NCBI GenBank assembly: GCA_050250895.1
Contig: JBFWNU010000001.1
Span: forward strand, 2,278,210 to 2,342,209
DNA length: 64,000 nt
From: Vulcanimicrobiota bacterium
GTDB taxonomy: Bacteria > Vulcanimicrobiota > Xenobia > Xenobiales > JADMJV01
Reading direction: 5' to 3'
Positions 2,618 to 25,672 of this stretch are shown piece after piece (position 1 is the stretch's first letter; every line of letters begins with the position of its first letter). The translations under genes were made by a program, and so were the position numbers. Under the pieces are notes generated by a model that saw nothing but the letters and a program-made list of their open reading frames with translations, ran no database searches and was not told the origin of the DNA.

Positions 2618-2936
2618 AGAAGAACCTGCAAATTCGTGGTGAGACCACCTATAAAGAAGGTGGGGAGGAATTCACCCGTTTCACTAGAAAGTGCAGTCTT
2701 CTTGATCTTGAATTAGATTGTCGAATTGGAAATACCGAAGGAATCGCTCTGCAGCGAGGGCAGGTCCGGATCGGAGGGTGGTGATGGTGACATCGTGATA
2801 AACACTCTCCGGGGCGGATGTCTCTCAGGCTTAGGGTCTGGCAGTCTCTCCTCGAAGTTATCGCGGTTCGACCGCGAGACGCAATTCATTATCGGTATTA
2901 GACTACGAAAATTGACTAGGGAGGTGGGTTTGACTT

Positions 2937-5066: not shown

Positions 5067-5404
5067 GGGATGGCCTTCTCGGGGCAGGCTAGAATGCTCT
5101 TCATTATACCATCCGCTGGTTTGGCTTGCAGGATCGCTTGACTTGGGAACCGAACCAAGTTCAACGACTTGAAGTTTAGTTCACGCGCGCCTGGAAAGCG
5201 ACCGTGAGTAGAACGGGCCACGACAATAGAGATAGGTCCGTGTGGCTGCTCTAGAATCAGCGTCGCGAACTGAAGAGCTACACAGTACGGGTTGGTACAA
5301 CTTGATCTCATTCGAAGGTAGGGCCTTTCACGGTCCAGCTATCCTAGTATTGTCCGACAACATTGTTCAGGGCTCCGTTATGTCCCATGGAAGGAGGTCC
5401 CACA

Positions 5405-8400
5405 ATGGCTGACGCTGTTGCTCTTCTTTCCGATGCCCAACGTTCGTACACCACCGGTGACTGGGACCAGGCGATCGACGCCTACAAGAAGGCCCTCGAG
5501 GCCGACCCGAACAATCGCGAAGCTTGCGAAAAGATGGCCAAGGTCTACGCCATTCGCGGGATGTACAAGTCGGTCATCTCCACCTATTATCAGCTGATTG
5601 ACATTCTCGAGTCGAGTGACGACCTCAATGGTGCTCTCGAGGTGGCCGATTGGGTGATGGCGCTCAAGCCCGACTCGGCTGAGGCCAGGGCCAAGCGCAT
5701 CCTGGTCTTCCAGAAGAAGGGCGACACCGAAGAGGTGGTTCGCCAGTCGCGCGGCCTGGCCAGGTTGTACATCGAACTCGGCGAGGGCGACAAATCGATC
5801 CAGCTGTTGCAGCAAGCCCAGAAGGCGGACCCTGATAATCTCGACATTGGGCTCGAACTGGCCGAGATGTATGTCAGCCATGGCCATATTCAGGACGGTG
5901 CAAATCAGTACCGCAAGGTAGCCAACGCTTTCCAGGACCAGGGCAACCTCGAGCGGGCCGCCGAGGCCTATAAGCGCATGAAGGTGATCGTGTCCGACGA
6001 CCCCGGCGTGCTGCTCACTCTGGGGCGGCTGTATGTCGACCTGCGCCGCTACAACGAGGCTGAGCAAGAGTTCCGCTCCATCTTAAGACACAATCTCAGC
6101 CACGAAGAGGCTTTGCTTGAACTGGGCCGCGTCTGTCAGCTAAAGGGTCAGTTCCGCGACGCCATTCTTGCCTTCAACAAGATCCTTTCCATCAACCCCG
6201 ACGTGGTCATGGCCAAAGAGAAGTTGGGTGAGCTCTACAAAGCTCAGGGCCTGGTGCCGGAGGCCATCAAGAATTTCCTGGCCGCGGCTCAGGCTTATCT
6301 CGAGATCGACGAGAAGGACAAAGCCATCCATCTCTATCAGATCGTTCTTGGTCTCGACACCAGCAACGCCACGGCTTGTCGCGAGTTGACCAACCTGGGT
6401 GCGCCACTCATCGGTATCGAACCCGAGCCAGAGCCCGAACCCGAGCCGGTGCCCGAACCGGTGGCGCAAGCCGAGCCAGAACCAGAGTTCGAGCCCGAAC
6501 CAGAGTTCGAGCCGGAGCCCGAGCCTGAAGTGGCGGTTATGCAACCTCCGCCGGCGCCCGCTCCGGCTGCTGGCGGCGGTCGTGCTAACGGTTTCGCCTC
6601 TTCCGAGCCAGCTATGGCTGGACCGCCGCGCGCACCCCGGGCAGGCTTGACTCCTCCTGATTCTCCCCGACCGGGGCTGACCACTCCCGAGTCGCCCCGA
6701 CCGGGCCTGACTGCTCCGGACGCGGCCGATTCGCCGAAGCGCGGACTGGTTCGTCGAGGCGGCGATGCTAGTGGCGGCTTGCGCCCAGGTCTGCGTGGCC
6801 CGGGCGGCCCCGGAGGTCCTGGTGGCAAACCTACGCTTGGACTGCGCGACCACTCCGGCCCTTTGCGCAAGGGACTCGAGCGCGAGGGTGGCGTGGGCGA
6901 CAAGCCTATGCTGATGCGCAAGCCCATGCTGGAGCGACGCTCGCCGGCTGACGAGAAGCCGACCTTGAGTCGGAACGAAGCCCCCCGGCCAACACCCGAG
7001 CCGATCAGCGCCCGCGAACCCGAACCTACCGAGTTCGAGCCGTTGGAGCCGCTGGAGCCGCTGGAGCCTTTGGAAGCGGTCGAACCGCCGGCCATCTCAC
7101 CCCCACCCGCCCTGCCTCCGCTCGAGCCCGAGCCTGAGCCCGAGCCAGAATTCGACGAGCCGATGGCCGAGGTCGAGCACGCTGAAGAAGCCGACTTCGA
7201 TGGCGAAGAAGACGAGAGTGGCGAAGAACGCGGTGGTCTCGGACAGAGCTTGCTCGGTTCACGCCAGGAGCGGCCATCTCTGCGAGGTGGCGGACTGCTA
7301 GGCGCCGGGCCGCGGCTGGGCATCAAGCCAGGTCCCTCCCTGGGAAAACCCAAGTTGGGTGGTCTCGGCGGTTTGCGCTCGACCAAACCCGAAGGGCGCC
7401 CTGGCGGTCTTTTGCGTCCCGGTCAGCCGACCGGTCGGATCGAGGATGACGAGCAAGGTGCCGAAGAATCGGCCTCTTTCGACAACCCCGAAGAAGTAAA
7501 CGGCCTCTTCTCGCAAATGCGTGACAGGGCGAAGCCTGCCGAGGCTCCTACGCCCAGTTCCGAATTGATGTCTCCCGAGGGAGGGCTTTTCGACGGCGAG
7601 AGATCTGAATCGGACAGTCTCTTTGGCGAGCCCGCTCCCGCCGGCGGACTGTTTGATTCACCGGCCCCCTCTCCGGCCCAGGATCTATTTGGCGAGCCAG
7701 AACCCGCTGGCGGGGGTCTCTTCGATTCACCCGCGCAGACCGACAAAGACGACCTGTTCGGCTCGTCCCCGGCTTCTTCTGGCGGCTTGTTCGACTCGCC
7801 GGCTGAGCCCGCAGGCGGGCTTTTCGATACCAGCCCAGCCTCTCGAGCCGCTGACAGCTTGTTCGGCGAGCCTCCGGCCCCCTCGGCCCCATCCAACGAC
7901 CTGTTCAGTGAGCCGGCGCCCGCGGCGACTGCCTCGAATGAAGACCTGTTCTCGTCGCCTCCGGCCTCCGAGCCGGCCGGCCTTTTCGAATCACCCGAAC
8001 CGGCTCCGGCCGATTCGCTCTTTAGCTCGGCTCCCCGCAATGAAGAGCCGCCGAGTCTTTTCGACTCTCGCCCGGTCGACGAGTCCTCGTTGGAACCCCC
8101 CTCGGCCGAGCCGGTAGCTCAAGACGGTTCCGATCCGTTCGGTTCCAGCCACGACCTCTTCGATCAACCGCCGCCAGCCGACGCCGACGGACTGTTCGGT
8201 GGCCAGGCCACCCAATCAGACCTCTTTGACCAGCCAGCGCCGGTTGCCGACGACCTTTTCTCGGCTCCCGCAGAGGCACCGGCGGCGGATCTGTTCTCGT
8301 CCGCCCCGGCCCCAGCCAGCGACCTGTTCAGCCAGCCGGCGGCTCCGGTCGAAGAGCCTGCGGCGCCCTCAAATGACCCGTTCCATCAGTCGGCCGCTCC

Positions 8401-11400
8401 AGCCAGCGACCTGTTCAGCCAGCCCGCAGCCCCGGCCGGGGACCTGTTCAGCCAGCCCGCGGCTCCGGCCGGCGACCTGTTCAGCCAGCCCGCCGCTCCG
8501 GCCGCCGACCTGTTCAGCCAGCCCGCGGCTCCGGCCGGCGACCTGTTCAGCCAGCCCGCCGCTCCCTCGAGCGACCCTTTCTCTCAGCCCGCCGCCAGCG
8601 ATGACCCGTTCAGTCCGGCACCTGCGTCGGCTGAGTCCGCCGAAGCGCCGGCCAGCGACCTGTTCAGTCAGAGCCCGGCCCCGGCTGGAGATCTGTTCAG
8701 TCAGACCCCTGCGCCGGCGGCCGGTGACCTCTTCGGGCAGTCTTCGGCTCCGGCGGCCGACCTGTTCAGCCAGACCCCGGCAGGTGACCTGTTCAGCCAG
8801 GCACCGGCCAACGAGCCTTTCAGCCCGGCCCCCGAGCCCGACCCGGCTCCGGCCGCAGACCTGTTCAGCCAGGCCCCGGCCGGCGACCTGTTTTCGGCTG
8901 CTCCCGTCGAGGCGCCCTCCTCGGGTCTGTTCGAACAGCCCGCCGGCGGTGACCTGTTCTCGGCTGCGCCTGCGCCGGCCCCAGTCGAGCAACCGGTGGC
9001 CAGCGAGCCCGCCCCCGCCGGGGGATTGTTTGACGAGCCTGCCCCCGAGGCCCGGTCCGAGCTGTTCAGCCCTGCTCCCGAGACCGCTCCGGCCAGCGAG
9101 GCGGCGGAAGAACTCTTCTCGCCGACCACGCCCGAAGCCCCGGCCGAAGCCGCTGCGGGCGGTTTGTTCGACGAGCCCGCCCCGGCTGCGGGTGGCTTGT
9201 TCGACCCTGCTCCCGCCGCTGGACTGTTCAGTGAGGCGACCGGTTCGTCCCAAGATAAGAAGGCGGCCGTGTCGGCGGCCTTCGAGCGCTTCCGCAAAGA
9301 CAAGCCCGGCGGCGGCTCGCAGGAGCCGGTGCCCGGAGAGGAAGAGCCCAGGCTCTCGAGCGAGATCGTGCTGCCCCCGCGTCCGCAGGACTCGCCAGAC
9401 TTCCTGCAGGCTCTTGAAGCGACCCTGCCGCGCCCGGCCTCGGCCGAGCCCGAGCCCGAGGCTGCTCCACCCAGCGTAGAGTTGGATCTCGAGCCCAGCC
9501 ATGAGTCAGCCGAGGTTCCGGTTGCTCCTCCTGCTCACGAGAGTTTCGAGATCGAAGAGCCGGTGGCCACGGCCGAGCCTGAGGTGGTGGTGCCCGAGGT
9601 GGTGCCCGAACCCGTGCCCGAGCCCGAACCCGAGCCCGAAGTGCTGGGACGACCCACCGTCTCGATGTCGATCGAGGAAGAGTCGCCAGACGAACATGTC
9701 TCCCAGGCCGACGACGTTCGCAACTCCCTGGGTGACTCTGATGTGGCGACCTCGATTAGCGTCTATCGTAAGGCTGTGGAAGAATCTCCCGACAACTTGG
9801 TGTTGCGCACCCGGCTCGCCGACATCCACATGCAGTATGGGCTGCTTGAGGACGCCGTCGTCCAGTATCGCCAGATCATCAAGCGAAACCCCGCTTCCAT
9901 CAGCCTTCGCCACCGCCTGATTCAAGCTCACCTTTGGAACGAGAGTCACGATCAGGCGGCTGCGGCCTTGATGGAGTTGGCCGAACTGCACTCCGAGCAG
10001 GGTAACCACCAGGACGCTCTCGACGCGCTCCAGACGGTGCTCAGTCTCGACCCTCATCACTTCGAGGCTCGCAAGCGTCTGGTCGACCGGTTCACGGCTC
10101 TCGATGAGGCCAAACTGGCCGCCCACCACTTGCGTCAATTGGCCGAGGCGGCCCTCACGAAGGGCAACGTGGAAGAAGCCATCAGCGCCTTCAAGCAGTT
10201 GATGGAGATCTCCGACGATCCCAGTTTCCAGGACCGGCTGGCCCAGGTCTACGAGAGCCAGGGAGACAACCAGCAGGCGTTGCTCCACTATCGTCAACTG
10301 GTGGCGCGCTACCAGAGCGAAGAGAAGTGGGAAGAGGCAGCTGCCGCCACCGAGCGTATCGCCGAGCTCGACCCCGAAGCGGTCGAGACCCGCACCGGTC
10401 TCATCGACCTCTACCAAAAGCTGGGTCTGACCGACAAGGTGATCGAGCAACAATTCGAGCTGGCTCGCTATCACCAGGTGCGCGACGAGTTACCTGAGGC
10501 GATTGCGCTCTACGAGCGAGTCGTGGCGGCGCGACCGCAGAAATACGATGCCCGCCGCCTACTGGTCGACGCCTATCTCGATTCCGGCAAGGTGCCGGCG
10601 GCGCTGCAGCAGTCCGAGGCGCTCACGGAGCACTATCTGACCACCAAAGACCACACCACCGCCATCGAACTTTACAGGCGATTGGTGGAGGCCGACTCCG
10701 AGAACGTCGAGCTACGCGAACGCCTGATCAAGTTCTACAACATGGCCGAAGACTCGACCAACGCCATGGAGCAGCTGCTGATCCTGGCTGGTCTGCACCG
10801 CGCCAACGAGCGCTACTCGCAGGCGGTGGATTGTTATCGCAGGGCGCTCGAACTTGACGAGTCGCGAGTTGACTTGCATTACGAACTGGCTCAGATCCAT
10901 GTCGACCACCTCGACGACCTCGAGTCGGCGATGCGGCAGTTCCGCCGGGTCTACGAGCTGGCCCCCACCAACCTCGAGGCCATGGAACGCTACATTCGCA
11001 TGCTGCTCGACGCCGGCAGCGCGGGCGAGGCGGGCGAGGTGCTCAATAAACTGGTCGAATCCAGTGACTCGGGCGACCAGGTTCGCGAAGCGCTTCTCTC
11101 CGAACTCAAAGCCAAGATCGAGCGCGACCCCGCCGACATGTCGGCCCGTTTCAACTATGGTGAGCTGTGCTTCCACCTGGGCGAACTTGACCTGGGTATC
11201 GAGCAGTTCCAGCAGACGCGCCGTGACCCGGCTTTCGAACTCAAGTCGTACAACATGTTAGGTCTATGCTTTGCCGAGAAGACCGGCTTCAATATGCTGG
11301 ACCTGGCCATCAAGCAGTTCCGCAAAGGTCTCGAGACCCGCGGTCACTCCGACCAGGATTATCTCGAACTCAAATACAACCTGGCGATGCTTCAGTATCG

Positions 11401-11533
11401 CAACGGAAGGCTCCAGGAGTCGCTTCAGGAGCTGAAGGATTGCTACGCCGTAGACATCGCCTTTAAGGACGTGCGCGAATGGGTGCGTCGAATCGAGGCG
11501 GAGATTGCGGGAGGGCCCCGCTTCCCGCGATAA
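5405..11533 (+). CDS. Giant TPR-repeat protein (2042 aa) with a ~1000-aa disordered PEPE / ΦLF-repeat core
   Basis: GGAAGGAGG RBS before ATG 5405 (the track ORF starts at 5363). N-terminal TPR of ~330 aa. Central low-complexity region (~nt 6410-9700) holds (EP)n tracts and about 45 DLFS/GLFD repeats. C-terminal TPR solenoid of ~600 aa. The C-terminal module is shared with the next gene. Confidence 0.85.
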   Translation: MADAVALLSDAQRSYTTGDWDQAIDAYKKALEADPNNREACEKMAKVYAIRGMYKSVISTYYQLIDILESSDDLNGALEVADWVMALKPDSAEARAKRILVFQKKGDTEEVVRQSRGLARLYIELGEGDKSIQLLQQAQKADPDNLDIGLELAEMYVSHGHIQDGANQYRKVANAFQDQGNLERAAEAYKRMKVIVSDDPGVLLTLGRLYVDLRRYNEAEQEFRSILRHNLSHEEALLELGRVCQLKGQFRDAILAFNKILSINPDVVMAKEKLGELYKAQGLVPEAIKNFLAAAQAYLEIDEKDKAIHLYQIVLGLDTSNATACRELTNLGAPLIGIEPEPEPEPEPVPEPVAQAEPEPEFEPEPEFEPEPEPEVAVMQPPPAPAPAAGGGRANGFASSEPAMAGPPRAPRAGLTPPDSPRPGLTTPESPRPGLTAPDAADSPKRGLVRRGGDASGGLRPGLRGPGGPGGPGGKPTLGLRDHSGPLRKGLEREGGVGDKPMLMRKPMLERRSPADEKPTLSRNEAPRPTPEPISAREPEPTEFEPLEPLEPLEPLEAVEPPAISPPPALPPLEPEPEPEPEFDEPMAEVEHAEEADFDGEEDESGEERGGLGQSLLGSRQERPSLRGGGLLGAGPRLGIKPGPSLGKPKLGGLGGLRSTKPEGRPGGLLRPGQPTGRIEDDEQGAEESASFDNPEEVNGLFSQMRDRAKPAEAPTPSSELMSPEGGLFDGERSESDSLFGEPAPAGGLFDSPAPSPAQDLFGEPEPAGGGLFDSPAQTDKDDLFGSSPASSGGLFDSPAEPAGGLFDTSPASRAADSLFGEPPAPSAPSNDLFSEPAPAATASNEDLFSSPPASEPAGLFESPEPAPADSLFSSAPRNEEPPSLFDSRPVDESSLEPPSAEPVAQDGSDPFGSSHDLFDQPPPADADGLFGGQATQSDLFDQPAPVADDLFSAPAEAPAADLFSSAPAPASDLFSQPAAPVEEPAAPSNDPFHQSAAPASDLFSQPAAPAGDLFSQPAAPAGDLFSQPAAPAADLFSQPAAPAGDLFSQPAAPSSDPFSQPAASDDPFSPAPASAESAEAPASDLFSQSPAPAGDLFSQTPAPAAGDLFGQSSAPAADLFSQTPAGDLFSQAPANEPFSPAPEPDPAPAADLFSQAPAGDLFSAAPVEAPSSGLFEQPAGGDLFSAAPAPAPVEQPVASEPAPAGGLFDEPAPEARSELFSPAPETAPASEAAEELFSPTTPEAPAEAAAGGLFDEPAPAAGGLFDPAPAAGLFSEATGSSQDKKAAVSAAFERFRKDKPGGGSQEPVPGEEEPRLSSEIVLPPRPQDSPDFLQALEATLPRPASAEPEPEAAPPSVELDLEPSHESAEVPVAPPAHESFEIEEPVATAEPEVVVPEVVPEPVPEPEPEPEVLGRPTVSMSIEEESPDEHVSQADDVRNSLGDSDVATSISVYRKAVEESPDNLVLRTRLADIHMQYGLLEDAVVQYRQIIKRNPASISLRHRLIQAHLWNESHDQAAAALMELAELHSEQGNHQDALDALQTVLSLDPHHFEARKRLVDRFTALDEAKLAAHHLRQLAEAALTKGNVEEAISAFKQLMEISDDPSFQDRLAQVYESQGDNQQALLHYRQLVARYQSEEKWEEAAAATERIAELDPEAVETRTGLIDLYQKLGLTDKVIEQQFELARYHQVRDELPEAIALYERVVAARPQKYDARRLLVDAYLDSGKVPAALQQSEALTEHYLTTKDHTTAIELYRRLVEADSENVELRERLIKFYNMAEDSTNAMEQLLILAGLHRANERYSQAVDCYRRALELDESRVDLHYELAQIHVDHLDDLESAMRQFRRVYELAPTNLEAMERYIRMLLDAGSAGEAGEVLNKLVESSDSGDQVREALLSELKAKIERDPADMSARFNYGELCFHLGELDLGIEQFQQTRRDPAFELKSYNMLGLCFAEKTGFNMLDLAIKQFRKGLETRGHSDQDYLELKYNLAMLQYRNGRLQESLQELKDCYAVDIAFKDVREWVRRIEAEIAGGPRFPR

Positions 11534-16015: not shown

Positions 16016-17461
16016 GTGAAAGTTTTGTTCACAAGCGAAGCGACGCGGGGGCTTAGACGAATCGGGCTGGCCAGTCTGATAGCCCTCACGTCCATCCAGG
16101 CTGCTTGGGCCGACGAGGGCGGCTTTATGGATGTCCTCAAGCAGCAAGAGAACAACCTTTTCCTTGGCATGATAGGCCTCGGTGTGACCCTGGTGGTCTT
16201 GATCGTGGCCGAAGTCGTTCTCTCCAAGCGCGAGAGCAGTTCTTCACTCGATATCGACCGATTGGCGGCTGCGGCTCAGCGCAAGCAGCAGAGCGCGATG
16301 GCCGCCGCCGCGCAGGCTAACCCCGGGGGAGCCTATGCTCCGCCCCCTCCGCCTCCTCCGCCGCGTCCCGGGGCCCCGCCCCCACCACCTCCGCCGCCGA
16401 GCCCTTCCGCGGCCCCATTACCGCCCCCGCCGCCGCCTCCGTCGTTTGACGAAGACGTCAATCCATTTCAAAAATTGTCCCGCCTGGCCGCCGATGACGA
16501 GATGGCTCCGGTGGGCGCGCCGCCGCCGCCCCCGCCGCCACCTCCTCCGCCGCCTATGAGTTTTCCGTCGGCCGGTCCGGCTTCCGAGGAAATGGCTCCT
16601 CCGCCGCCGCCTCCGCCCCCGCCCCAGTTTGCGCCTCAGGGCAGCGGTGAGATGCCCTCCATGGGCATGCCCACCTCGCCACTCGGAGGAGGAGGATTTA
16701 ACGCACCGCCGCCTCCACCACCTCCGCAGGGCATGCCCACGGCACCCCTCGGAGGCGGTTTCAACGCACCCCTGGGCAGTCCGACCTCTCCCCTGGGAGG
16801 TTTCAATTCGCCGATGGGCACGCCGACGACGGCGCTGGGCAACCTCGGCTCTCCCACCACCTCCCTGGGCAACCTGGGCAACATGGGGACTCCGACCACC
16901 GCCCTGGGAGGCATTCCCGGGATGGGCTCGTCGGGTCCGCCCTCGCTCGAGTCGACCAGTCCTCTGGCCGGGCCCGGCGGAGAAGCCGGGGGTGGTGGCT
17001 GGGCCGACCTGCTCCAGCGCGTCCGGGCCGGAGAACCCGAAGCAGCATCTTTTTCGGGGGGCGGGGCTACACCGCCGCCCTCAACCGAAGACGAACCTCC
17101 TCGGCAGAGTCCGTTCCTGCCCACCGGTGGCTTTAATACCGGTGGTGGTGGCGGTGGGGGGGGCTCGTCTGAAGCTTGGGAAGCCCTTTTGAAGAAGACG
17201 ACCGGGGATGACCCCGGGCGTCCCAAGAAGCCCGGAGGAGGCGACGTCGGTCGCATCCAACTGGGCTCGGGCGAAGGTTTCTCGCTACCCGGCATGGGCG
17301 GCGACAGCGGAGGCAGTCCCCTGGACTTCCTCGGTGGCGGTAGGTCCTCTGAGGAGGGTTTACCCGATGTCGTCAAAAAAGCAAGCCGGACGATCTCTTT
17401 GGACTTGAAGAAGGGAGGGGGACAAACCCCGCCTCCCCCGCTTCCCAAGACTGAGGGATAG
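16016..17461 (+). CDS. Proline-rich single-pass membrane protein with polyproline (FH1-like) tracts and WH2-like motifs
   Basis: GTG 16016 follows a GGGAAGGGG RBS (the track ORF at 15920 overlaps the upstream stop). Signal-peptide-like LASLIALTSIQAAWA|DE. TM helix LFLGMIGLGVTLVVLIVAEVVL. Four runs of 8-12 Pro. Gly/Thr/Pro-rich tail containing ADLLQRVRAG and EALLKKT. Confidence 0.7.
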   Translation: MKVLFTSEATRGLRRIGLASLIALTSIQAAWADEGGFMDVLKQQENNLFLGMIGLGVTLVVLIVAEVVLSKRESSSSLDIDRLAAAAQRKQQSAMAAAAQANPGGAYAPPPPPPPPRPGAPPPPPPPPSPSAAPLPPPPPPPSFDEDVNPFQKLSRLAADDEMAPVGAPPPPPPPPPPPPMSFPSAGPASEEMAPPPPPPPPPQFAPQGSGEMPSMGMPTSPLGGGGFNAPPPPPPPQGMPTAPLGGGFNAPLGSPTSPLGGFNSPMGTPTTALGNLGSPTTSLGNLGNMGTPTTALGGIPGMGSSGPPSLESTSPLAGPGGEAGGGGWADLLQRVRAGEPEAASFSGGGATPPPSTEDEPPRQSPFLPTGGFNTGGGGGGGGSSEAWEALLKKTTGDDPGRPKKPGGGDVGRIQLGSGEGFSLPGMGGDSGGSPLDFLGGGRSSEEGLPDVVKKASRTISLDLKKGGGQTPPPPLPKTEG

Positions 17462-17469
17462 ACTAGCTC

Positions 17470-18384
17470 ATGCCAGCAGTATTAGGAGGCGAGTTGCTTC
17501 TCCCTAAAGGGAATGCCTTAATCGAGGACATCACGCTCCCGGTCCATGATATCGAGACGATGATCACGAATCTCGAGAGTGATCATTTCACTGGCTACGT
17601 TCGTCTGGATATCAGCGGAACCGAGGGGCTGGTATTCTTCTCATCGGGAGAAGTCTTGCGGGCCATCGAGCTTCCCAGCGGAGCGGACCCCATCGTCCGG
17701 TTGCTGCCTCGCGTCATTAATCTGGCCCGGCAACGGATGGAAGTGCCCGCTTCGTCCTACGTAATGAGCCCCCAGATCATCTCGGTGCTGTCGAGCGTTT
17801 TTGCGTTTAAGCCCAAATACAAAGACTACCAAGTCAAGCGTAAAGAGATGAAGAAGGTGCTCAACAGTCTCGAGCAAGATGAGTGCTCGGGCATCCTCAA
17901 GATGGTGGGTCCCGACGGTCGAGTGTGTCTGTTGATGGACCGAGGCAATCTGGTCACCGACCGGTTCGCCACCAACTACGGAGAGGTGGTCTGTGGAGCC
18001 GAATCGGTCAGCAGCGTGCTCGACTATGTGCACAAAAACGGCTCGACCATCCAGGTTTATGCCGAGAAGGCCAACGAGATCGACAACCTGCGCCGGCGGG
18101 CTGAAGACGAACTAGAAAAGATTCGGCAGCTGATCGTCAAAGAGAAGTCGGGCATGTTCCGAGCCAGTGACGTGGTCAAAGTGGCTGAAGACATCATTCG
18201 CGACTGGGGCATCGATATCAAGCAGACCTTCATGGTCGAGATCGAAACCGGCACCGGCGAACTCTTCAACTTCAAGTGCCAGGCCGGACGCAAACTGGGC
18301 GGCTACGCCGAAGTGCATTCAAATATGCTCAAGACCATGTCAGTCAACGAAGGAGACCTCGTCAACGTTCGACCGATCGGTTGA
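17470..18384 (+). CDS. Hypothetical protein, possibly tandem DUF4388/PATAN-like domains
   Basis: 304 aa, starts 9 nt after the previous stop. Two repeated segments (HFTGYVRLDISGTEGLVFFSSGEVL / ECSGILKMVGPDGRVCLLMDRGNLV) recall DUF4388 from memory. The domain call is unverified. Confidence 0.6.
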   Translation: MPAVLGGELLLPKGNALIEDITLPVHDIETMITNLESDHFTGYVRLDISGTEGLVFFSSGEVLRAIELPSGADPIVRLLPRVINLARQRMEVPASSYVMSPQIISVLSSVFAFKPKYKDYQVKRKEMKKVLNSLEQDECSGILKMVGPDGRVCLLMDRGNLVTDRFATNYGEVVCGAESVSSVLDYVHKNGSTIQVYAEKANEIDNLRRRAEDELEKIRQLIVKEKSGMFRASDVVKVAEDIIRDWGIDIKQTFMVEIETGTGELFNFKCQAGRKLGGYAEVHSNMLKTMSVNEGDLVNVRPIG

Positions 18385-18398
18385 CGTCAACACACACC

Positions 18399-18755
18399 AT
18401 GGCCGACCTGATGGATGTTCTACAGAACTTTTGCCGACTTGACCACGTGCAGGGAGCGGCCATTCTCGATGCCAACGGCTTCGTGGTAGAGCAGCATTTT
18501 GTCGGGGATCAGGATAGTGCTCCCGTGGGCGAGATTATCCTGCGCAGCCTTCAGGCGGGGATGCAACTGTCCGAAGAACTCGGCAAGGCACCTCTGACCC
18601 AGCAGTATATCGAATTTGCAGATGTCCAGCTGACAGCCGAAATCTTGACCGCGGGTTTCGTGCTGGTGATCCTGGCTGGAGCTGGGGCGAATCTTGGTAG
18701 GGTGCGTCTCGAGATTCGCAAGAACAAAGGTGCGGTAGAGCGGATGCTGGCCTGA
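18399..18755 (+). CDS. Roadblock/LC7 (MglB-like) domain protein
   Basis: 118 aa from ATG 18399. Roadblock-like core GAAILDANGFVVEQ…QYIEFADVQLTAEILTAGFVLVIL. The longer track ORF start at 18276 (GTG) is an upstream extension. Confidence 0.8.
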   Translation: MADLMDVLQNFCRLDHVQGAAILDANGFVVEQHFVGDQDSAPVGEIILRSLQAGMQLSEELGKAPLTQQYIEFADVQLTAEILTAGFVLVILAGAGANLGRVRLEIRKNKGAVERMLA

Positions 18756-19135
18756 TGAGTGCAAAGAAGATCCTGATCGTTGACGACGAGCCCCATGTGC
18801 TCGAGGTCTTGAGAGTCACTCTCGAGGACTTCGGCTTCAAGATTCTCGAGGCGATGGACGGCGAAGACGCCATCGCCACCGTCCAGGAACAGCGTCCCGA
18901 CCTCGTGGTCCTCGACGTGATGTTGCCTGGACGCGACGGTCAAGAGATTTGTCGCCAGCTCAAGGCTTCCAGCGACACGGCGGCCATTCCGGTGATCATG
19001 CTGACCGCCCGTAGCGGTCCCGAGAACGAGCGCGAAGGGCTCGAGGCAGGGGCGGATGCCTACTTGACCAAGCCGTTTAGCCCACTAACGCTGCTCTCCG
19101 AGGTTCATCGTCAATTGCAGCTTGAAATTGCGTAA
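18755..19135 (+). CDS. Response regulator, receiver (REC) domain only
   Basis: CheY-like motifs ILIVDDEP…LVVLDVMLPGRDG…TKPFSP. The ATG overlaps the upstream TGA (TGATG). Confidence 0.9.
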   Translation: MSAKKILIVDDEPHVLEVLRVTLEDFGFKILEAMDGEDAIATVQEQRPDLVVLDVMLPGRDGQEICRQLKASSDTAAIPVIMLTARSGPENEREGLEAGADAYLTKPFSPLTLLSEVHRQLQLEIA

Positions 19136-19144
19136 TAGGCCCCA

Positions 19145-20722
19145 ATGCGGCCGGACCTCGAAAAGCGACCACGTGAGCAGTTGCTCGCGCTCTATGAGAT
19201 AGGGCGGGCGATCAACTCTACCCTCGAACTCGAAGATGTGCTCGACCGGATCCTCGAGATGACGCTGGGGTTGTTCCATGCCGAGGCCGGCTCGATCATG
19301 CTGCGGCAGGACGATGTGTTGACCATCGCGGTGGCCCGTGGATTGACCGCCACGATCGTGGCCGAGACGCGCGTTCCCATCGGGGAGGGTATTGCCGGCT
19401 GGGTGGCCCAGACAGGCGAAATGATTCGCCTTGATGGCAAGGTCGACGATCCTCGCTTCGTCAGCCTGGTGGAGCGCGAGGACAACATCACGTCGTCGCT
19501 GTGCGCCCCCTTGCTCCATCGTTCTCAGGTGGTCGGAGTCTTGATGCTGCGGCGCGGGGGCGAGACCACCTTCACCCCCGATCAGTTAGATTTTCTGGCC
19601 TCGGTGGCCGATCAGGCGGCCATCGCTCTCGAGAATGCCCGTCTCTACGCCGAAGAGATCAAGCGCTCGAAAGAACTCGAGCTTGAACGGCAGAAGCTCG
19701 AGATGGTGCTGGCTTCGATGGCCGACGGAGTGGTGGTGTGTCACCCCGATGGCGAGATTCGGCGCCACAACCAGATGGCCGGCCAGTTGCTCGGCTGGAG
19801 CCAGGAGGCGGTGGGCCAGAAATTGCCGGAGCTGTGTCCGTCGCTGCCTTTCGAGCACCTGTGGGAGCAAGTCAATCAAGAAGGAACCTACGTCTGTGAC
19901 TTGCGCAGCGCCGACACGACCTTGCGCATCGTGGCGACTGCTTTGCGCTTTCAAGACGAGAGCCCCGAGGGATTGGTGGCTCTGTTTCATGACGAGACCG
20001 AACGGGCTCGGGTCGAGAAGATGAAGTCTGAGTTTCTCTCGATGGTCAGCCACGAACTCAAGACCCCGATCACCACCATCCAGGCCTTCGCCGAGCTGAT
20101 GCTCTATCGGGACTTTCCCGAGGAGCGCAAGCGCAAGTTTCTGCAGATCTGCCTTACCGAGTCGCAACGGTTGCAGAAGTTGATCGAAGAGATTCTCGGC
20201 CTGTCGCGGCTCGAGGCCGGACAGTTTGCTTTCCACAAGGTGCCGTGCCGCCTCGATGAGCTGGCTCGCAGTTTGCTGCCGGGTTTCGTGGAGCGTTCGG
20301 CCAGCCACGATATCCAGCTCAAGGTGCATGGCGACCTGCCCACGCTTGAACTGGATCCGACCTTGATGACCCAGGCCCTGTCCAATCTGGTCTCTAATGC
20401 CATCAAGTATTCACCCGACGGCGGACCCATCACCATCGAGCTAGGGGCTGAGCCGGAACGAATCCTGGTCTGTGTGCGCGACCAGGGGATCGGCATTCCG
20501 GAGGACAAGATACCGTTCGTGTTTGAAAAGTTCTTCCGGGTCGACAACTCGCTCACGCGCAAGACTGGAGGGACTGGCCTCGGCCTAGCGAACTGTAGAT
20601 ATATCGTGGAGGGCCACGGGGGCACTATCTGGGTCGAGAGTCAACCCGACCTCGGAAGCCGATTCAGCTTCACCCTACCCTGCCCCCCTTCCGCCCCAGG
20701 AGGATCGGATGCTCAAGTCTGA
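19145..20722 (+). CDS. GAF-domain sensor histidine kinase
   Basis: N-terminal GAF, HisKA H-box SHELKTPITTI, HATPase G-boxes (GIGIPED…GGTGLGLA). Confidence 0.9.
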   Translation: MRPDLEKRPREQLLALYEIGRAINSTLELEDVLDRILEMTLGLFHAEAGSIMLRQDDVLTIAVARGLTATIVAETRVPIGEGIAGWVAQTGEMIRLDGKVDDPRFVSLVEREDNITSSLCAPLLHRSQVVGVLMLRRGGETTFTPDQLDFLASVADQAAIALENARLYAEEIKRSKELELERQKLEMVLASMADGVVVCHPDGEIRRHNQMAGQLLGWSQEAVGQKLPELCPSLPFEHLWEQVNQEGTYVCDLRSADTTLRIVATALRFQDESPEGLVALFHDETERARVEKMKSEFLSMVSHELKTPITTIQAFAELMLYRDFPEERKRKFLQICLTESQRLQKLIEEILGLSRLEAGQFAFHKVPCRLDELARSLLPGFVERSASHDIQLKVHGDLPTLELDPTLMTQALSNLVSNAIKYSPDGGPITIELGAEPERILVCVRDQGIGIPEDKIPFVFEKFFRVDNSLTRKTGGTGLGLANCRYIVEGHGGTIWVESQPDLGSRFSFTLPCPPSAPGGSDAQV

Positions 20723-22139
20723 ACACAAAACGACCCTGGATCGCAAGATCGAACGTTTTCGAGGTATTCTCAATCGAGCCCCGGAGGATACTCTGACCGC
20801 CCTGGCTCTGGCTGAGGCTAGCTTTCGCAGGGGACTACGCCTGGAAGCGTTGACCGCCTATCAAGAGGTCAGCAAGAAGCACTCGGTGGCCGAGGCTCAT
20901 CTGGCCATCGCCCAGATCTACAGCCGTCAAGGCATGTTGGTCGAGGCGTATGAAGAGATCGCTCGGTTGCTAGAACTCGAACCCGAGAACATCGAGGCGC
21001 GATTGCTGGCCCAAGAACTCGAAGAGGTGCATCCCATTCCCGAGGGCATTCGCCTGAGCATCGGTCGGACTCCGTCGCTCGAGGCTATTCGCGAGACGCG
21101 CTTGCGCGTGAAGATTCAACGCGGCATCTTCACCCGCGAGATTCAAGAGTTGACCCGCAACGCCACCCTCGAACCGGCCGAGCCGATTCATGAATACTAC
21201 CTGCAAGAGGCCAAAAAGCGTCTGGCTCGGCTCGACGAGGTGATGGTTACCCTCGAAGAGATGGAACGTAGCGCCGAGAAGTTCTTGCCGCCCAAACCCG
21301 ACTTGATGACTCCCTTCGAGGCCAAAGAGAGCGAGCCGGTCGCACCTCTCGAGGAGCCCGCTCTGACCGATTACGCGCCCGAACCGGTGGCCTCGACCGA
21401 AACCGTTGCTGACGAGGCGGCCGTCATCCCGATCGATCCGGCACCGCTTGAAGAACTGCCTCTCATCTATGATGACGTCGGGGGCGAGAACATCTTCAGC
21501 ACCGATATTCCACCGGAATACGAAGACCTCAGCGAGATGCTCGATTTCGAAGGTGGGTCCAAGTCGGATTCTTTCGATCTTTCTCACATGTTCGACAGCT
21601 CTGAGGGGGGCGACGAGGTGGTGGTCGAGACCGACGAGCCGGTTGCGACGTTCGAGTCCGAGTTTGAGACCGAGCCCGTTTCGGAACCAGAGCCCGAACC
21701 CGAACCCGAACCCGAACCCGAAGCAGAGTCGGCTCCGGCGTTCATTCCTGACTCAGCCGCCCGGGATCAGTTCTATCTCGACATCAGCTCCAAGCTCGAA
21801 GAGCTGACCTCGACTCTTTCCAAGACCCGCGGAGTCACTTCGATCTTCGTGGTCTCGCGCCGCGGCCGCGTGGTTCAAAGCATCAGCGAAGACGCCATCA
21901 GCGCCGAGCGAGTCGGCGAGACGGTCGTCGAGGGTCTCGATTTCCTCGAGACCTTCGCCCAGGAGCCGGCCTATTGGGTGCTCGAGTGCGACGGCGGCAT
22001 CTTCATCATGCAGATCATCGACGCTCAGCACGTGGTGGTGGCCATCGGGCAAAAGGGCGCGAACTTCGGGGCTCTGCGCTTCACTCTCGACAAGAGCCGA
22101 CCCAAGTTCTCCGAACTTTTGGCCGATCTGCCGGGTTAG
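20709..22139 (+). CDS. TPR protein with acidic PE-repeat linker and C-terminal roadblock/LC7-like domain
   Basis: GGAGGA RBS, overlaps the HK stop. N-terminal TPR, (EP)n linker, C-terminal GVTSIFVVSRRGRVVQSI…YWVLECDGGIFIMQIIDAQHVVVAIG (roadblock-like). Confidence 0.75.
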   Translation: MLKSEHKTTLDRKIERFRGILNRAPEDTLTALALAEASFRRGLRLEALTAYQEVSKKHSVAEAHLAIAQIYSRQGMLVEAYEEIARLLELEPENIEARLLAQELEEVHPIPEGIRLSIGRTPSLEAIRETRLRVKIQRGIFTREIQELTRNATLEPAEPIHEYYLQEAKKRLARLDEVMVTLEEMERSAEKFLPPKPDLMTPFEAKESEPVAPLEEPALTDYAPEPVASTETVADEAAVIPIDPAPLEELPLIYDDVGGENIFSTDIPPEYEDLSEMLDFEGGSKSDSFDLSHMFDSSEGGDEVVVETDEPVATFESEFETEPVSEPEPEPEPEPEPEAESAPAFIPDSAARDQFYLDISSKLEELTSTLSKTRGVTSIFVVSRRGRVVQSISEDAISAERVGETVVEGLDFLETFAQEPAYWVLECDGGIFIMQIIDAQHVVVAIGQKGANFGALRFTLDKSRPKFSELLADLPG

Positions 22140-24500
22140 GTGGCGGGCGACGCGCGCTTAGAGCGAGTCTCGAGCGCGTTTTTTCGTCTGATCGACACCC
22201 TTTGCCTGGGGTTGCTCATGGGGCTGGTCTTCTTTCCGGCCATCCCCGCCCTGATCTACCTGGCTTCCCTGCTCTGGGGCTTTGACGCCCAGACTCTGTT
22301 GACCGGTGAAGTTACGCCGGGCAAAGTGTTTCTCTATATCTGCGCGGGCACCGATAGCGGGGCTCAACTGGCTTCGGGAGGCAGCCTGCTGCGCGGACTG
22401 GGTCTGTTGGCCCTGGCTTTCTGGCTGCTGTTGCCCCGGCAACTGGCCGCTCCGGTGCGACCGCTGGCCCGACTGACTCTGGGACTGGGCCTGGTCGGAG
22501 TGGTGGGGGCATTGAGCTGCGACCATCCTCGAGACGCCCTGGTGGGTTGGATGGATCTTCTCTTGCCCCTGGCTCTGGCCATCATGGCCGCCGACCTGGG
22601 CTGGCGCGAGCGCAACAAGAATAGCCTGTTGGCTGCCTTCGTGGCCAGCCTGGCAGTGGTCTTGCTGGTGGCCTACATCTCCTTTGCGCTGGGCTTTTCT
22701 CCCGACGAGCGCATGCGCGGGTCGTTCTTTCATCCCAACATGCTGGCGGCTTACCTCTTGCTCGGCCTGGGACCGCTGGCCTATATGGTGCTGGCCGAAC
22801 AAGGCCAAGACCGGCCAGGCCAGGCGGCGTTGGCTCCGGTGCTGGCCGCTCTGCTGGGCTCGCTGCTGTTGACGGGCTCGCGGGCCGCCTGGCTGGCGGT
22901 AGCGCTGTTGGCGGGCCCGCTGGGGGCCGGACTGGTCAGCCGCTTCTCGCAACGGCGCCAGCTGTGGATGCTGGGCTTTCCCCTGGCAGGAGGTATCCTC
23001 TGCCTGGGAGCCCTTCTTCACTGGTGGATCGTGCTGGTGCTCGCGGCCGCCCTGCCGCTGGTCTGGTTGAGGCATCTCTCCGAGCCCCGCAAGTTCTTGC
23101 CCAAGCTGATCGTTGTGCTGGTTTTGGCCGGCTGCTTCGGATTGGGCTTGATGACGGTCGATCGCCAGAACAGTCCCACCAACCGAATCGAAGGGGCCAT
23201 CTCTTCCAACTCGTTCAAGGCCAGGCTGCATTTCTGGTCGGCCTCACTAGCGATCGCTCGCAACCATCCCTGGTTGGGGGTCGGCCCCGACGGATTTCAC
23301 CGGCACTACCCGGCGTATCAGACCGACATCCGCTATTTCTCGAAGTTCACCCACTCCTTGCCCATGTCGCTGTTGGCCGAGTGCGGCCTCCTCTTCACGG
23401 TGCCGGCCGTGGCCTGGTTGTGGCTGGCGGGGTCGGTCCTGTGGGCAAGAGCCAGAGAAGGTGACTTTGGGCTGGGCTGGGCGATTTTCTGGTCGGTCGC
23501 CATGTGGCTGGTCCACGCCTGCTTTGACGTCGACCTGCAGTTTCCGGCCCTGGGGTTCACGGCCGGTCTTCTGCTCGGTTTGGCGCTAGCCCAGGAACCG
23601 TCGGCCGAAGAGCCAGCCGAGCAAGAGCCGCGCTCTCAATGGTCGATTCGGCCCGGCTTGCTCAGCCAGTATCCCCTGGCCGTGGTGGCCGTGATGCTGT
23701 GTCTCGTCAATGCCCAGTTGACCTTTGCTGCCCATCATACCCGGCTGGCCGACCTGGCCTCGGGAGTGTCGGAATATAAAGCTGCCGCCGACCTCTATCG
23801 CGAAGCCATGCGTCTGGACCCCTTCGACGGCGAGAACTATCGCAAATTGGCTCTGGTAGCCATGGTCGCCCCCGCCCTCGAGGTGCCTGACGAGACTCTC
23901 GAGCAGCTGAGCCAACAGGCTCTAGCTCTCGACCCCCATCGCCCCGTCTGTCATAATTTACGCGGCCGTGTTTTGGAGCGGCTTGGCCAGGACGGGCGAC
24001 CGGCCTTCCGCCGTGCCCTCGAGCTCGACAGCTTCAACTATCCCTCGTTCTATCGTGACCTGGCCGAGGCCTATCGAGTCCGCGGCCAGCCCCAGGTTGC
24101 CCTCCAGCTCGTCGAGCAGGCCCTGCGCCGGTTCCCCGATGAGGCCCGGACTCAGGTGCAAGACAGCCGGGTGAATACCCTCACCAGCCAGATGGCAGGG
24201 CTCTACGAAGAGCAGGGCTTCCTCTTAATCGAGCAAGAATCGACCCTTCCGGCCTCGCAGCGGGCCTTCGAGCAGGCTCTGGCCCTGGAGGATTCGGCCA
24301 ATCGCCGCTTCGGCCTGGCCGTCAGCCTGATGGGGCAAAAGCAGTTCGCCCGGGCCGCCGAAGAGTTCGAGAAAGTGGTCAAGCTCGACGATTCGTCACG
24401 CCAAACCTGGGAATTTCTCGGCCACTGCTACGCCAAACTCGGCCGCCTCGAAGACCTCAAACGCGTCAACCGCTCCCTGTCGACGCGAAGCGTCGATTAG
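22140..24500 (+). CDS. O-antigen ligase (Wzy_C)-like polytopic membrane protein fused to C-terminal TPR repeats
   Basis: ~12 predicted TM helices with LTGSRAAWLAVALLAG (Wzy_C-like) then a ~250-aa TPR tail. GTG start adjacent to the upstream TAG; start uncertain. Confidence 0.7.
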   Translation: MAGDARLERVSSAFFRLIDTLCLGLLMGLVFFPAIPALIYLASLLWGFDAQTLLTGEVTPGKVFLYICAGTDSGAQLASGGSLLRGLGLLALAFWLLLPRQLAAPVRPLARLTLGLGLVGVVGALSCDHPRDALVGWMDLLLPLALAIMAADLGWRERNKNSLLAAFVASLAVVLLVAYISFALGFSPDERMRGSFFHPNMLAAYLLLGLGPLAYMVLAEQGQDRPGQAALAPVLAALLGSLLLTGSRAAWLAVALLAGPLGAGLVSRFSQRRQLWMLGFPLAGGILCLGALLHWWIVLVLAAALPLVWLRHLSEPRKFLPKLIVVLVLAGCFGLGLMTVDRQNSPTNRIEGAISSNSFKARLHFWSASLAIARNHPWLGVGPDGFHRHYPAYQTDIRYFSKFTHSLPMSLLAECGLLFTVPAVAWLWLAGSVLWARAREGDFGLGWAIFWSVAMWLVHACFDVDLQFPALGFTAGLLLGLALAQEPSAEEPAEQEPRSQWSIRPGLLSQYPLAVVAVMLCLVNAQLTFAAHHTRLADLASGVSEYKAAADLYREAMRLDPFDGENYRKLALVAMVAPALEVPDETLEQLSQQALALDPHRPVCHNLRGRVLERLGQDGRPAFRRALELDSFNYPSFYRDLAEAYRVRGQPQVALQLVEQALRRFPDEARTQVQDSRVNTLTSQMAGLYEEQGFLLIEQESTLPASQRAFEQALALEDSANRRFGLAVSLMGQKQFARAAEEFEKVVKLDDSSRQTWEFLGHCYAKLGRLEDLKRVNRSLSTRSVD

Positions 24501-25498
24501 ACCGGCGTGTAGAGACCGCCCAGGTGGCGCAAGACCAGGCCTTTGAGTTCGAGATGCACCAGGGCCCGGGCCAGGGCCGGAGCGTCAAAGCCCGTCTTGA
24601 CGCTCAGTTCGGCCATACTCGAGCCGCCGGGGTCAAGAGCCTGGTAGACTTGAGCGAGCGGTTCTTCAAGCTGGGGCGGAGCAGCCAGCTGGGTCGCATA
24701 ACCCAACTGATCGATGATGTCGTCCACCCCGCGCACGATGGATGAGCCCTCATAGAGCAGTTTGTGAGTGCCGTCCGAGTTGGGGTTGCCCACGTGACCG
24801 GGGGCCGCCATCACGGTCCGGCCCAGATCCTGGGCCAGGTCGGCTGTGATCAAAGCGCCGCTGCGGAGGCCGGCTTCGACCACGACCACTACCTGGCACA
24901 ACCCGGCTACGATGCGATTGCGGGCCGGAAAGCGCCAGGCGGCGGGGGCGGTTCCGGCCGGGTACTCGCTGAGCAGACAGGCCTGGCGAGCCATCTGGGT
25001 CCGCAGGGCCCGGTTGGTCCGAGGGTAGTCATAGTCGAGGCCGCAGCCAAGCACGGCTACCGGGTGAGCCTCGGAGCGAAAGCTGGTCATGGCGCCCTGG
25101 TGGGCGGCCGAGTCGATGCCCATCGCCAATCCACTCACCACCACCACCCCGCGAGCGGCCAGGTCGGCACCCAGACGGTAGGCCAAAGTCCGTCCATAGG
25201 GAGTGGCCCGGCGAGAGCCCACGATGGCAACCCGGGGATGCTCGGGGCTGGGAAAGGGCAGCCCGGCGCGATAGAGCAGCGCTGGCGGGTCGCACAGATC
25301 CAGTAGCGAGATGGGATACTCCAGGTCCCCGGGAGTCAACGCCGCAAACGGATCGCTCGGGTTGCAGTGCTTCAATTTTAGGCGCTTGACCACGGCTTCG
25401 GGGCTGCCCATCTGTTCGACCAGAGCAGCGATCTGGCGCGGACCCAGTCGAGACAGACCCAGAGTCAGCCAGGCTTGGCGTCGGTTCGGGGCGCTCAT
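24497..25498 (-). CDS. dprA: DNA processing protein DprA (Smf)
   Basis: Rossmann-like DprA core VVVSGLAMGIDSAAHQGA. The start is taken at the internal ATG (MSAPNRR…) with a GAGGAG RBS; the longer track ORF runs to 25573. Confidence 0.8.
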   Translation of the reverse strand: MSAPNRRQAWLTLGLSRLGPRQIAALVEQMGSPEAVVKRLKLKHCNPSDPFAALTPGDLEYPISLLDLCDPPALLYRAGLPFPSPEHPRVAIVGSRRATPYGRTLAYRLGADLAARGVVVVSGLAMGIDSAAHQGAMTSFRSEAHPVAVLGCGLDYDYPRTNRALRTQMARQACLLSEYPAGTAPAAWRFPARNRIVAGLCQVVVVVEAGLRSGALITADLAQDLGRTVMAAPGHVGNPNSDGTHKLLYEGSSIVRGVDDIIDQLGYATQLAAPPQLEEPLAQVYQALDPGGSSMAELSVKTGFDAPALARALVHLELKGLVLRHLGGLYTPV

Positions 25499-25672
25499 CG
25501 ATGCTCCTCGGAGTAGCCAGCCGGCGAGAATTTTTCCATAGTGAGTGAACTCATGATTTGTTGCTCCTCTCACCGTCCAGTATGAAGCCGATTTAAGACC
25601 GTAGCGTGTCGAGCTTGTGAACGGTCGATTGCTAGGATGTTTCTAAATCCTTAACGTCGAATGGGCGGGCCT

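Follow-up and report, generated by a model that had tools for sequence, protein, structure and literature searches.

Can a bacterial membrane protein that combines long polyproline runs with short leucine-rich helices be a regulator of actin, and if not, what might such a protein do beside type IV pilus genes? The question is raised by a gene on the forward strand at positions 16016–17461 of a 64,000-nucleotide stretch of DNA from a Vulcanimicrobiota bacterium (assembly GCA_050250895.1, contig JBFWNU010000001.1, positions 2,278,210 to 2,342,209), referred to here as the window, whose numbering is used throughout. An earlier note on this DNA had likened the layout of the product to that of eukaryotic and bacterial actin nucleators, and had named partner recruitment in a bacterial polarity system as the alternative. 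As judged by the searches described below, the gene belongs to a real, conserved, tiny and uncharacterised family, without homology to any described family and present in one phylum only, and its product is probably an inner-membrane-anchored disordered scaffold of an Eremiobacterota-specific regulatory module that lies beside type IV pilus genes.

The gene is an intact, real open reading frame (ORF) encoding 481 amino acids, of which 20% are proline and 16.6% glycine. Its longest reading begins at a GTG at 15920, overlapping the upstream gene (end 16001); the GTG at 16016 is a plausible start because it lies 15 nt past the upstream stop at 16001, has a Shine–Dalgarno-like stretch (GGAAGGGG) just 5′ of it, and gives the same N-terminus from which the homologues align. 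A Logan assembly contig of 13,184 bp is 100% identical over the locus and is recorded in two samples, which argues that the proline runs are no one-off assembly artefact. On that contig (L005) the public gene call, 7592–8926, equivalent to 16127–17461 of the window, begins at Met38 and gives 444 residues, so that the signal-peptide-like segment is dropped and the membrane topology would escape an automated annotation. A minus-strand ORF at 16636–17448 (270 residues, P/G-rich, with a run of eight prolines at about 17163) was rejected as a gene, since conservation tracks the plus-strand protein, and is regarded as a compositional shadow of the target frame. The features of the gene and its predicted product are as follows.

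16016–17461, forward strand: target gene, GTG start, stop codon 17459–17461; 481-residue protein, predicted to be membrane-anchored, disordered and Pro/Gly-rich
16016–16111, forward strand: signal-peptide-like N-terminus, residues 1–32, with a K/R-rich n-region, a hydrophobic core and an AWA↓DE site
16160–16225, forward strand: predicted transmembrane (TM) helix, residues ~49–70, with SKRE after it; hydropathy up to 2.5
16244–16288, forward strand: juxtamembrane helix SLDIDRLAAAAQRKQ, residues 77–91; L78, I80, L83 and A84–A88 nearly invariant
16340–16726, forward strand: polyproline region, residues 109–237, with six runs of 8, 8, 7, 12, 9 and 7
16460–16492, forward strand: NPF-helix NPFQKLSRLAA, residues 149–159; F151 invariant, AlphaFold helix 150–158
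16727–16990, forward strand: variable G/T/P-rich repeats (GGFN, TPTTALGNLG), a target-specific insertion in the alignment
16994–17053, forward strand: W-motif 1, GGWADLLQRVRAGEPEAASF, residues 327–346, a predicted short amphipathic helix
17069–17095, forward strand: TPPPSTEDE motif, residues 352–360; P355, T357 and E358 at least 90% conserved
17165–17203, forward strand: W-motif 2, SSEAWEALLKKTT, residues 384–396, a predicted short helix
17360–17458, forward strand: C-terminal peptide LPDVVKKASRTISLDLKKGGGQTPPPPLPKTEG, running up to the last residue of the protein; P450, R458, I460, L462, D463, P473 and P477 invariant

The family was delimited by a word-indexed search, which returned 55 homologues of the target, by a HMMER profile search of 1.84 billion cluster representatives, which gave 34 clusters at E≤1e-3, and by a pattern scan of 185,579 GTDB species genomes, which gave 14 loci. 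Wherever homologues carry a name in the protein databases it is Eremiobacterota or Vulcanimicrobiota, and nine of the 14 GTDB records bear an Eremiobacterota-type label (Vulcanimicrobiota, Xenobia, Eremiobacteraeota or an EREM contig name). Of the remaining five, three are labelled as Burkholderiales, one as Selenomonadaceae and one as plain ‘bacterium’; the same gene cluster is present in them, and these labels are probably submitter mislabels. Four of the GTDB contigs labelled ‘uncultured Burkholderiales’ or ‘Selenomonadaceae’ (L011, L013, L017 and L018) have the whole Eremiobacterota-type cluster with its gene order unchanged. Neither the profile search nor the GTDB scan found a homologue outside the Eremiobacterota, and the target itself has no Pfam domain and no NCBIfam match. 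The family is drawn from Eremiobacterota metagenome-assembled genomes (MAGs) of varied, mostly environmental origin. This phylum has barely been cultured; its one cultured member, Vulcanimicrobium, is a free-living diderm with phototactic movement on type IV pili (PMC9758169), and Xenobia MAGs resemble trace-gas scavengers, some of them coming from skin or faecal samples (PMC11484240).

Conservation was read from alignments of 16 and 56 sequences, in which the invariant columns are confined to a few short islands and the sequence between the islands varies freely. These islands include the juxtamembrane segment (consensus SLDI[DA][RK]LAAAA.[KR]K), which lies inside an AlphaFold helix at residues 45–98; the first polyproline site, FAPPPPPPPP, conserved in 53 of the 55 homologues; the NPF-helix, seen in homologues as [NS]PFx[RK]LSxL; the PPPSTE[DE] motif; and the C-terminal block, with the consensus LPDF[VI]KKxxRTISLD..KGGGQxPPPPxPKTEG. 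In place of the GGFN and TPTTALGNLG repeats of the target, homologues bear SFQLPG or SFKLPG repeats elsewhere in the protein. The two short motifs in which the earlier note had seen a likeness to WH2 are present, at residues 326–338 (GGWADLLQRVRAG, with W329 at nt 17000) and 387–395 (AWEALLKKT, with W388 at nt 17177), and both proved strongly conserved among orthologues; the outcome that the earlier note had named as refuting its reading, motifs missing or unconserved there, was not seen. Across the 56 sequences the invariant residues of W-motif 1 are G327, W329, L332, L333, R335, V336 and R337, and those of W-motif 2, whose consensus is SSEAWEALLK[KR]T, are A387, W388, E389, L391 and L392. 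Such conservation shows that the motifs are important and says nothing for actin binding. Both W-motifs occur in essentially all of the 55 homologues, and 62 of 65 members have exactly two; in the distant members P0109 and P0118 the pattern [DE]-[DP]-[WF]-x-x-L-L-x-K-[TV] is repeated three or four times; the core of the family is two to four copies of W-x-x-L-L-x-[KR]-[VT] together with a fixed C-terminal peptide. This peptide ends in P[KR]TEG in 44 of the 55 homologues and in NPFQKPPQ in the other 11, which are mostly short forms (308–344 residues).

Around these islands little structure is predicted. AlphaFold2 run with the family alignment gave a mean predicted local distance difference test (pLDDT) score of 55 and no globular domain, the only helices being those of the signal segment, the TM and juxtamembrane region (45–98), and residues 150–158, 329–337 (WADLLQRVR) and 386–396 (EAWEALLKKTT), with a mean pLDDT of 74 over residues 331–340. 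A membrane anchor, long predicted disorder and short conserved helix-forming islands are the features of a membrane-anchored disordered scaffold with short linear motifs, a functional class that implies no homology family. Since conserved linear motifs are present, the target is more than the plain proline-rich spacer that the earlier note had considered as a way in which its reading might fail.

Considering the polyproline itself, the four runs noted earlier are real and extreme, and a full count gives six of at least seven residues, with a further PPPP near the C-terminus. When the tail was shuffled 100,000 times no shuffle reached a run of 12, and just 1% gave one run of at least seven. The proline codons of the target are mixed (CCG 41, CCC 29, CCT 18 and CCA 8, so that the claim of CCG, CCC and CCT only was slightly off), and Tandem Repeats Finder reported weak, imperfect 3/9/15-nt periodicity only. 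That the runs arose by DNA slippage or in the assembly was rejected, given the mixed codons, the weak tandem-repeat scores and the identical contig in two samples, and the earlier view that they are no simple homopolymer slip stands. Conservation in orthologues is another matter: at least one run of seven or more is kept in 53 of the 55 homologues, where runs of five or more number from 0 to 5, the target with its six runs of at least seven being the extreme, while the most distant members, P0109 and P0118, have nearly lost polyproline (runs of at most five). Of the two elements on which the earlier note had staked conservation, the short motifs are thus firmly kept and the runs are variable in number. 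Because the distant members keep three or four copies of the W-LL helix while polyproline decays, it is the helix, rather than polyproline, that defines the family as the alignments present it.

The signal-like N-terminus and single TM helix proposed earlier were borne out. The target begins with MKVLFTSEATRGLRR, continues with a hydrophobic stretch and reaches AWA↓DEGG, and the same signal-like features, the A-x-A site included, are seen again in homologues (the cleavage site being judged by eye); a single strong TM follows at about residues 49–70 by hydropathy. Summed over 63 family members, the loop between signal segment and TM contains 49 K/R versus 88 D/E, and the 20 residues after the TM contain 244 K/R versus 198 D/E. 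By the positive-inside rule this charge distribution suggests that the TM is a stop-transfer anchor, with the loop in the periplasm and the ~410-residue tail in the cytoplasm, an orientation that would hold with or without signal cleavage. None of the neighbour-encoded proteins looks secreted on inspection of its sequence.

How, then, does the actin reading fare? WH2 is a motif of 15–20 residues whose helix uses two Leu/Ile residues and is usually followed by LKKV or LRRV (PMC10907219). A search with the Pfam WH2 profile (PF02205), which the earlier note had put forward as a check, gave no match in the target at E≤0.1 and none in the target plus 15 homologues at E≤10, although HMMER filters may hide very weak matches. 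A search of the PDB with the family profile at E≤10 returned no WH2 or actin-binding chain; the matches that it did return, among them an RPW8-domain protein and Cox6b, are proline-rich and of low complexity, and were treated as compositional. A helix-linker-L[KR]x[VT] regular expression found none of the 65 members, versus three of four control WH2 sequences. Alignment of the family with a small WH2 alignment by hhalign, which gives a lead only, paired just 10 residues, ADLLQRVRAG with ALLDQIRQG, at a probability of 1.7%, with the LKKV half unaligned. W-motif 1 is followed by AGEPEAASF, with no LKKV element, and in W-motif 2 the letters LKKT overlap the helix itself, without a preceding helix and linker. 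AlphaFold does predict an amphipathic Leu/Ile helix of the WH2 type at both W-motifs, a feature common to many unrelated helical motifs. Neither Pfam nor AlphaFold gave an FH2 or other actin-assembly domain beside the polyproline.

The polyproline-plus-WH2 layout of an actin nucleator therefore fails in these tests, with no PF02205 match, no member with the helix–linker pattern, a negligible hhalign probability and a tail predicted to be cytoplasmic. The target does share with WASP, VASP, the formin FH1 region, VopL/VopF, TARP, BimA and Sca2 a disordered protein in which polyproline is followed by LL-helices, and a case for a secreted or surface effector, whose FH1-like polyproline would recruit profilin–actin and whose WH2-like helices would bind actin monomers, could be built from the real and extreme proline runs, the resemblance of ADLLQRVRAG to half a WH2 helix, the LLKKT letters, the conservation of both motifs and the origin of some family members in faecal or skin-associated samples. 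It differs from those regulators, however, not only in the failed WH2 tests but also in the tail, which is predicted to lie in the cytoplasm behind a stop-transfer TM on the bacterium’s own inner membrane; in the gene, whose neighbours in a fixed operon encode cytoplasmic regulators (described below); and in the polyproline, which is dispensable in that distant members do not keep it. The earlier note had also suggested looking for secretion-system genes and a eukaryote-associated lifestyle: no type III, IV or VI secretion system genes were found among the scanned ORFs of the window, which gave type IV pilus genes only, and the phylum is mainly free-living and environmental. Taken together, the failed WH2 tests, the predicted cytoplasmic tail, the regulator operon, the lack of an effector secretion system among those ORFs and the ecology of the phylum make an actin effector very unlikely. 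As a caution for similar cases, polyproline with an LL-helix in a bacterial protein is no evidence of actin mimicry.

The alternative, in which the protein would recruit partners for polarity or motility in the bacterium, agrees well with the evidence, as the target lies in a conserved cluster of PATAN-like, Roadblock, response-regulator, kinase and tetratricopeptide repeat (TPR) genes beside type IV pilus genes. The neighbouring features of the window are these.

235–5006, forward strand: type IV pilus genes, namely prepilin peptidase/PilD (235–1086), PilM (1517–2617) and AMIN-secretin PilQ (2937–5006)
5363–11533, forward strand: giant 1, ~2050 residues, with N- and C-terminal TPR blocks around a disordered centre of ~1100 residues
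11625–16001, forward strand: TPR giant 2, 1458 residues, TPR along its whole length, directly 5′ of the target
17470–18384, forward strand: partner gene, 304 residues, after an 8-nt gap; PATAN/PatA_N-like N-terminal part and C-terminal double-psi beta-barrel of the Cdc48-N/VAT-N type
18399–18755, forward strand: Roadblock/LC7 (MglB-like) protein, PF03259 at E=1e-9, kept in synteny
18755–19135, forward strand: single-domain response regulator, PF00072 at E=2.8e-31
19145–20722, forward strand: GAF-PAS histidine kinase, by domain matches
20709–22139, forward strand: 476-residue protein (P476), with a TPR-like N-terminus, an acidic EPEP disordered stretch and a Roadblock-like C-terminus; syntenic

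The full order in the window is PilD, PilM, PilQ, giant 1, TPR giant 2, target, the 304-residue gene, Roadblock, response regulator, kinase, P476, a Wzy_C-TPR gene and, on the opposite strand at the end of the cluster, DprA. From giant 1 to DprA this order is essentially fixed across 18 related loci. The target always lies just upstream of the PATAN-like/barrel gene, the Roadblock gene and the response regulator, with the kinase following in most loci; TPR giant 2, which is 62–75% identical across loci, adjoins the target upstream in 17 of 18. The 304-residue gene is directly 3′ of the target in all loci that reach that far, with a gap of 7–10 nt in the window, L001 and L003, and it appears to be translationally coupled to the target. 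Its predicted structure is confident (pLDDT 91.4, predicted template modelling score 0.83), and the PatA_N match (PF14332) is precomputed in several homologues of the partner and ‘faint’ in L003. The public call of the partner starts eight residues later; its alignment is too divergent for pattern scanning, and a GTDB scan with the single 304-residue protein gave no match.

On this basis we propose that the target is a membrane tether whose conserved helices and C-terminal peptide would dock co-encoded cytoplasmic proteins at the base of the pilus. The best candidate for a receptor would be the PATAN-like/barrel protein, since its gene is apparently translationally coupled and its barrel type is a known binder of adaptor peptides, as Cdc48-N-type barrels are. 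The TPR giants would be further candidate receptors, for the W-acidic helices and the fixed C-terminal peptide, because short peptides and free C-termini are classical ligands of TPR domains, e.g. the EEVD of Hsp70/90, and the W-acidic motifs recognised by kinesin light chain. The polyproline may provide stiff polyproline II (PPII) spacers, or low-affinity ligands, which project the docking sites off the membrane; at ~3.1 Å per residue, full extension of the six runs, 51 prolines in all, would cover ~16 nm. The module would then place pilus assembly or polarity under two-component control, a link that PATAN, Roadblock/MglB and SgmX-type TPR proteins provide in cyanobacteria and Myxococcus: MglB/Roadblock genes often adjoin PATAN genes (PMC4316618), and SgmX, a TPR protein, recruits PilB in Myxococcus (PMC11580455). 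In Synechocystis, PATAN domains bind PilC and PilB1, the extension ATPase of the pilus, and the inner-membrane location of these regulators is independent of both, ‘additional proteins mediate membrane localization’ (bioRxiv 10.1101/2021.06.11.447907). The pilus link is made by PilD, PilM and PilQ upstream in the window and by a PilT/B-like ATPase upstream in L003. The juxtamembrane RLAAAAQR bears some resemblance to a VCP-interacting motif, which might be a ligand of the partner barrel, but its spacing is imperfect and we make no claim from it.

We consider the general model probable, and have much lower confidence in any particular docking partner. Several points weigh against it. Gene order and the general properties of domain classes are what point to the partner’s identity, adjacency in the window and analogy are what point to the pilus, and charge bias is the one line of evidence for a cytoplasmic tail. 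The PATAN call is weak, the partner scoring 20.4 bits against PatA_N where the Pfam cut-off is 25 (E=5e-4). The pattern scan did not detect the family in the cultured Vulcanimicrobium alpinus, and no MglA-like small GTPase was found among the Pfam-scanned ORFs of the window, where smaller ORFs were not scanned exhaustively. The giants take up the 10-kb flanks at the other loci, which leaves any pilus genes there out of view.

Among the other explanations, one keeps the cytoplasmic tail and changes its ligand: the W-x-x-LL helices could bind an actin-fold ATPase of the cell, PilM, MreB or FtsA, and the target would then be a tether standing in for the PilN N-terminus or an analogue of ZipA or RodZ. 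PilM is encoded upstream, with the secretin gene directly after it and no PilN, PilO or PilP ORF in the 320-bp gap between PilM and PilQ, and for Vulcanimicrobium the genome paper gives only pilMDTC (PMC9758169), so that the pilus alignment subcomplex may be missing or unrecognisable in the Eremiobacterota. The target has a membrane anchor and conserved amphipathic helices predicted to face the cytoplasm, and half of the helix resembles those of WH2, which bind the hydrophobic cleft of actin (PMC10907219). No similarity to the N-terminal motif of PilN was found, however, the tightest genomic partner is the PATAN-like gene and not PilM, PilM was not seen in the 10-kb flanks of the other loci, and the argument is purely one of analogy, all of which makes PilM or its relatives an improbable ligand. 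It is equally improbable that the helices are a bacterial counterpart of WH2-type helix-in-cleft ligands which, by binding PilM, would build with giant 1 and the TPR proteins a multivalent pilus-base assembly with a eukaryote-like motif grammar (polyproline, NPF, DLF and W-acidic); were this true, the pilus motor would be tethered to the membrane by a protein of a new kind. The absence of PilN, PilO and PilP between PilM and PilQ, together with the presence of the secretin in the same cluster, also admits a tail on the other side of the membrane, reaching toward the secretin either as a TonB-like rigid proline spacer (TonB is generally known for an N-terminal TM and a proline-rich rod) or as a replacement of the PilN/O/P alignment complex. 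This too is improbable: counted from a cytoplasmic n-region, a signal-like segment and a second TM give an even number of membrane crossings, or an N-out/C-in protein if the former is cleaved; K/R enrichment over the 63 members lies past the TM and not in the loop; no folded C-terminal domain for contact with the outer membrane was found, nor a TonB_C match; and the syntenic partners are all without signal peptides and of cytoplasmic domain classes.

The remaining explanation attributes the function to bulk properties, the target being an entropic bristle or spacer, or else a multivalent seed that would draw the [DEG]LF-repeat giant and the TPR proteins into a condensate. Most of the target is predicted to be disordered and its repeats (GGFN, SFQLPG) are variable; P476 also bears a disordered acidic region. 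The centre of giant 1 carries 41 [DEG]LF/DPF motifs, many of them as DLFSQPAAPAG tandems, along with EPEP acidic runs and PRPGLT-type repeats, and part of it matches Pfam Nucleoporin_FG at 48.3 bits, above the curated cut-off of 32.2; its orthologues at most other loci and in most lineages have 19–93 such motifs. On the other side, the invariant, position-specific motifs and the fixed C-terminus favour specific recognition, which leaves a mainly bulk role unlikely; such a role is in any case compatible with docking and not exclusive of it.

Returning to the membrane-anchored docking scaffold, ZipA, RomR and FimV-type hubs already exemplify its general kind, in which one membrane pass carries a disordered cytoplasmic tether with motifs and the protein serves a motility or polarity module. 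ZipA is generally described as a bitopic N-out/C-in anchor with a long, flexible, proline-rich cytoplasmic linker to a cytoplasmic machine, which is the arrangement predicted here; it differs in having no signal peptide and in ending in a folded FtsZ-binding domain, whereas the target has linear motifs only and no sequence similarity to it. FimV/HubP/TspA hubs and TonB are single-pass proteins whose long low-complexity regions, acidic or proline-rich, organise machines of the pilus or the envelope. A LysM domain in the periplasm and a TPR-like motif in the cytoplasm mark FimV, a periplasmic rod with a folded end domain marks TonB, and the target has neither set. In Myxococcus xanthus, RomR with MglA, MglB, SgmX and FrzS offers a proline-rich disordered scaffold that works with a Roadblock protein, a receiver and a large pilus-controlling TPR protein (PMC11580455; PMC9481161). 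RomR, however, is a soluble protein with a receiver domain, whereas the target is predicted to be membrane-anchored and no MglA GTPase was seen among the scanned ORFs. The TPR proteins of the window are larger than SgmX and not orthologous to it, scoring 142.9 bits with the NCBIfam SgmX model, where the cut-off is 1800. As for the PatA-type PATAN regulators of cyanobacterial phototaxis, their localisation needs an additional factor (bioRxiv 10.1101/2021.06.11.447907), and here a PATAN-like gene follows that of a putative membrane-anchored protein after 8 nt. This partner differs in lacking a receiver domain and in having a Cdc48-N-type barrel instead, and the link is one that we infer. If the docking model is true, the family would anchor to the membrane a pilus-control module specific to this phylum, and the model suggests a testable answer to the question of how PATAN regulators are held at the inner membrane. 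The locus as a whole, with its polyproline, W-LL helices, NPF motif, DLF array and giant TPR proteins, looks like the multivalent motif-based assemblies usually discussed for eukaryotes, which is unusual in bacteria; the motif array of giant 1 in particular is similar to the DLF/DPF/NPF arrays found in endocytic adaptors of eukaryotes.

Some further observations concern the neighbouring genes. The annotated TTG start of giant 1 is probably too early. The C-terminal ~120 residues of P476 match the neighbouring Roadblock protein by BLASTP at 27% identity (E=0.002), by which P476 would be a second Roadblock-like protein of the cluster, and its acidic EPEPEP stretch gives a weak match to Pfam Trypan_PARP. 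Four loci of the clade with short, polyproline-poor targets (L003, L006, L007 and L008) have ~1.3–5.6 kb of extra DNA between the PATAN-like gene and the Roadblock gene; in L003 this contains a 368-residue ORF, with the TPR giant downstream on the opposite strand and the ATPase mentioned above upstream. The stretch 22140–25573 of the window holds the gene of a 786-residue Wzy_C (O-antigen ligase-like) and TPR protein and, convergent with it, the DprA gene; this pair, which is syntenic with the module, might be a sign of pilin glycosylation, natural competence or both. Elsewhere in the window most of the scanned ORFs are of housekeeping or signalling type, and at 40139–42114 on the forward strand there is a second pilin-like pair, in which a 204-residue protein bearing an N-terminal methylation motif precedes a 454-residue DUF7305 protein; both may be minor pilins.

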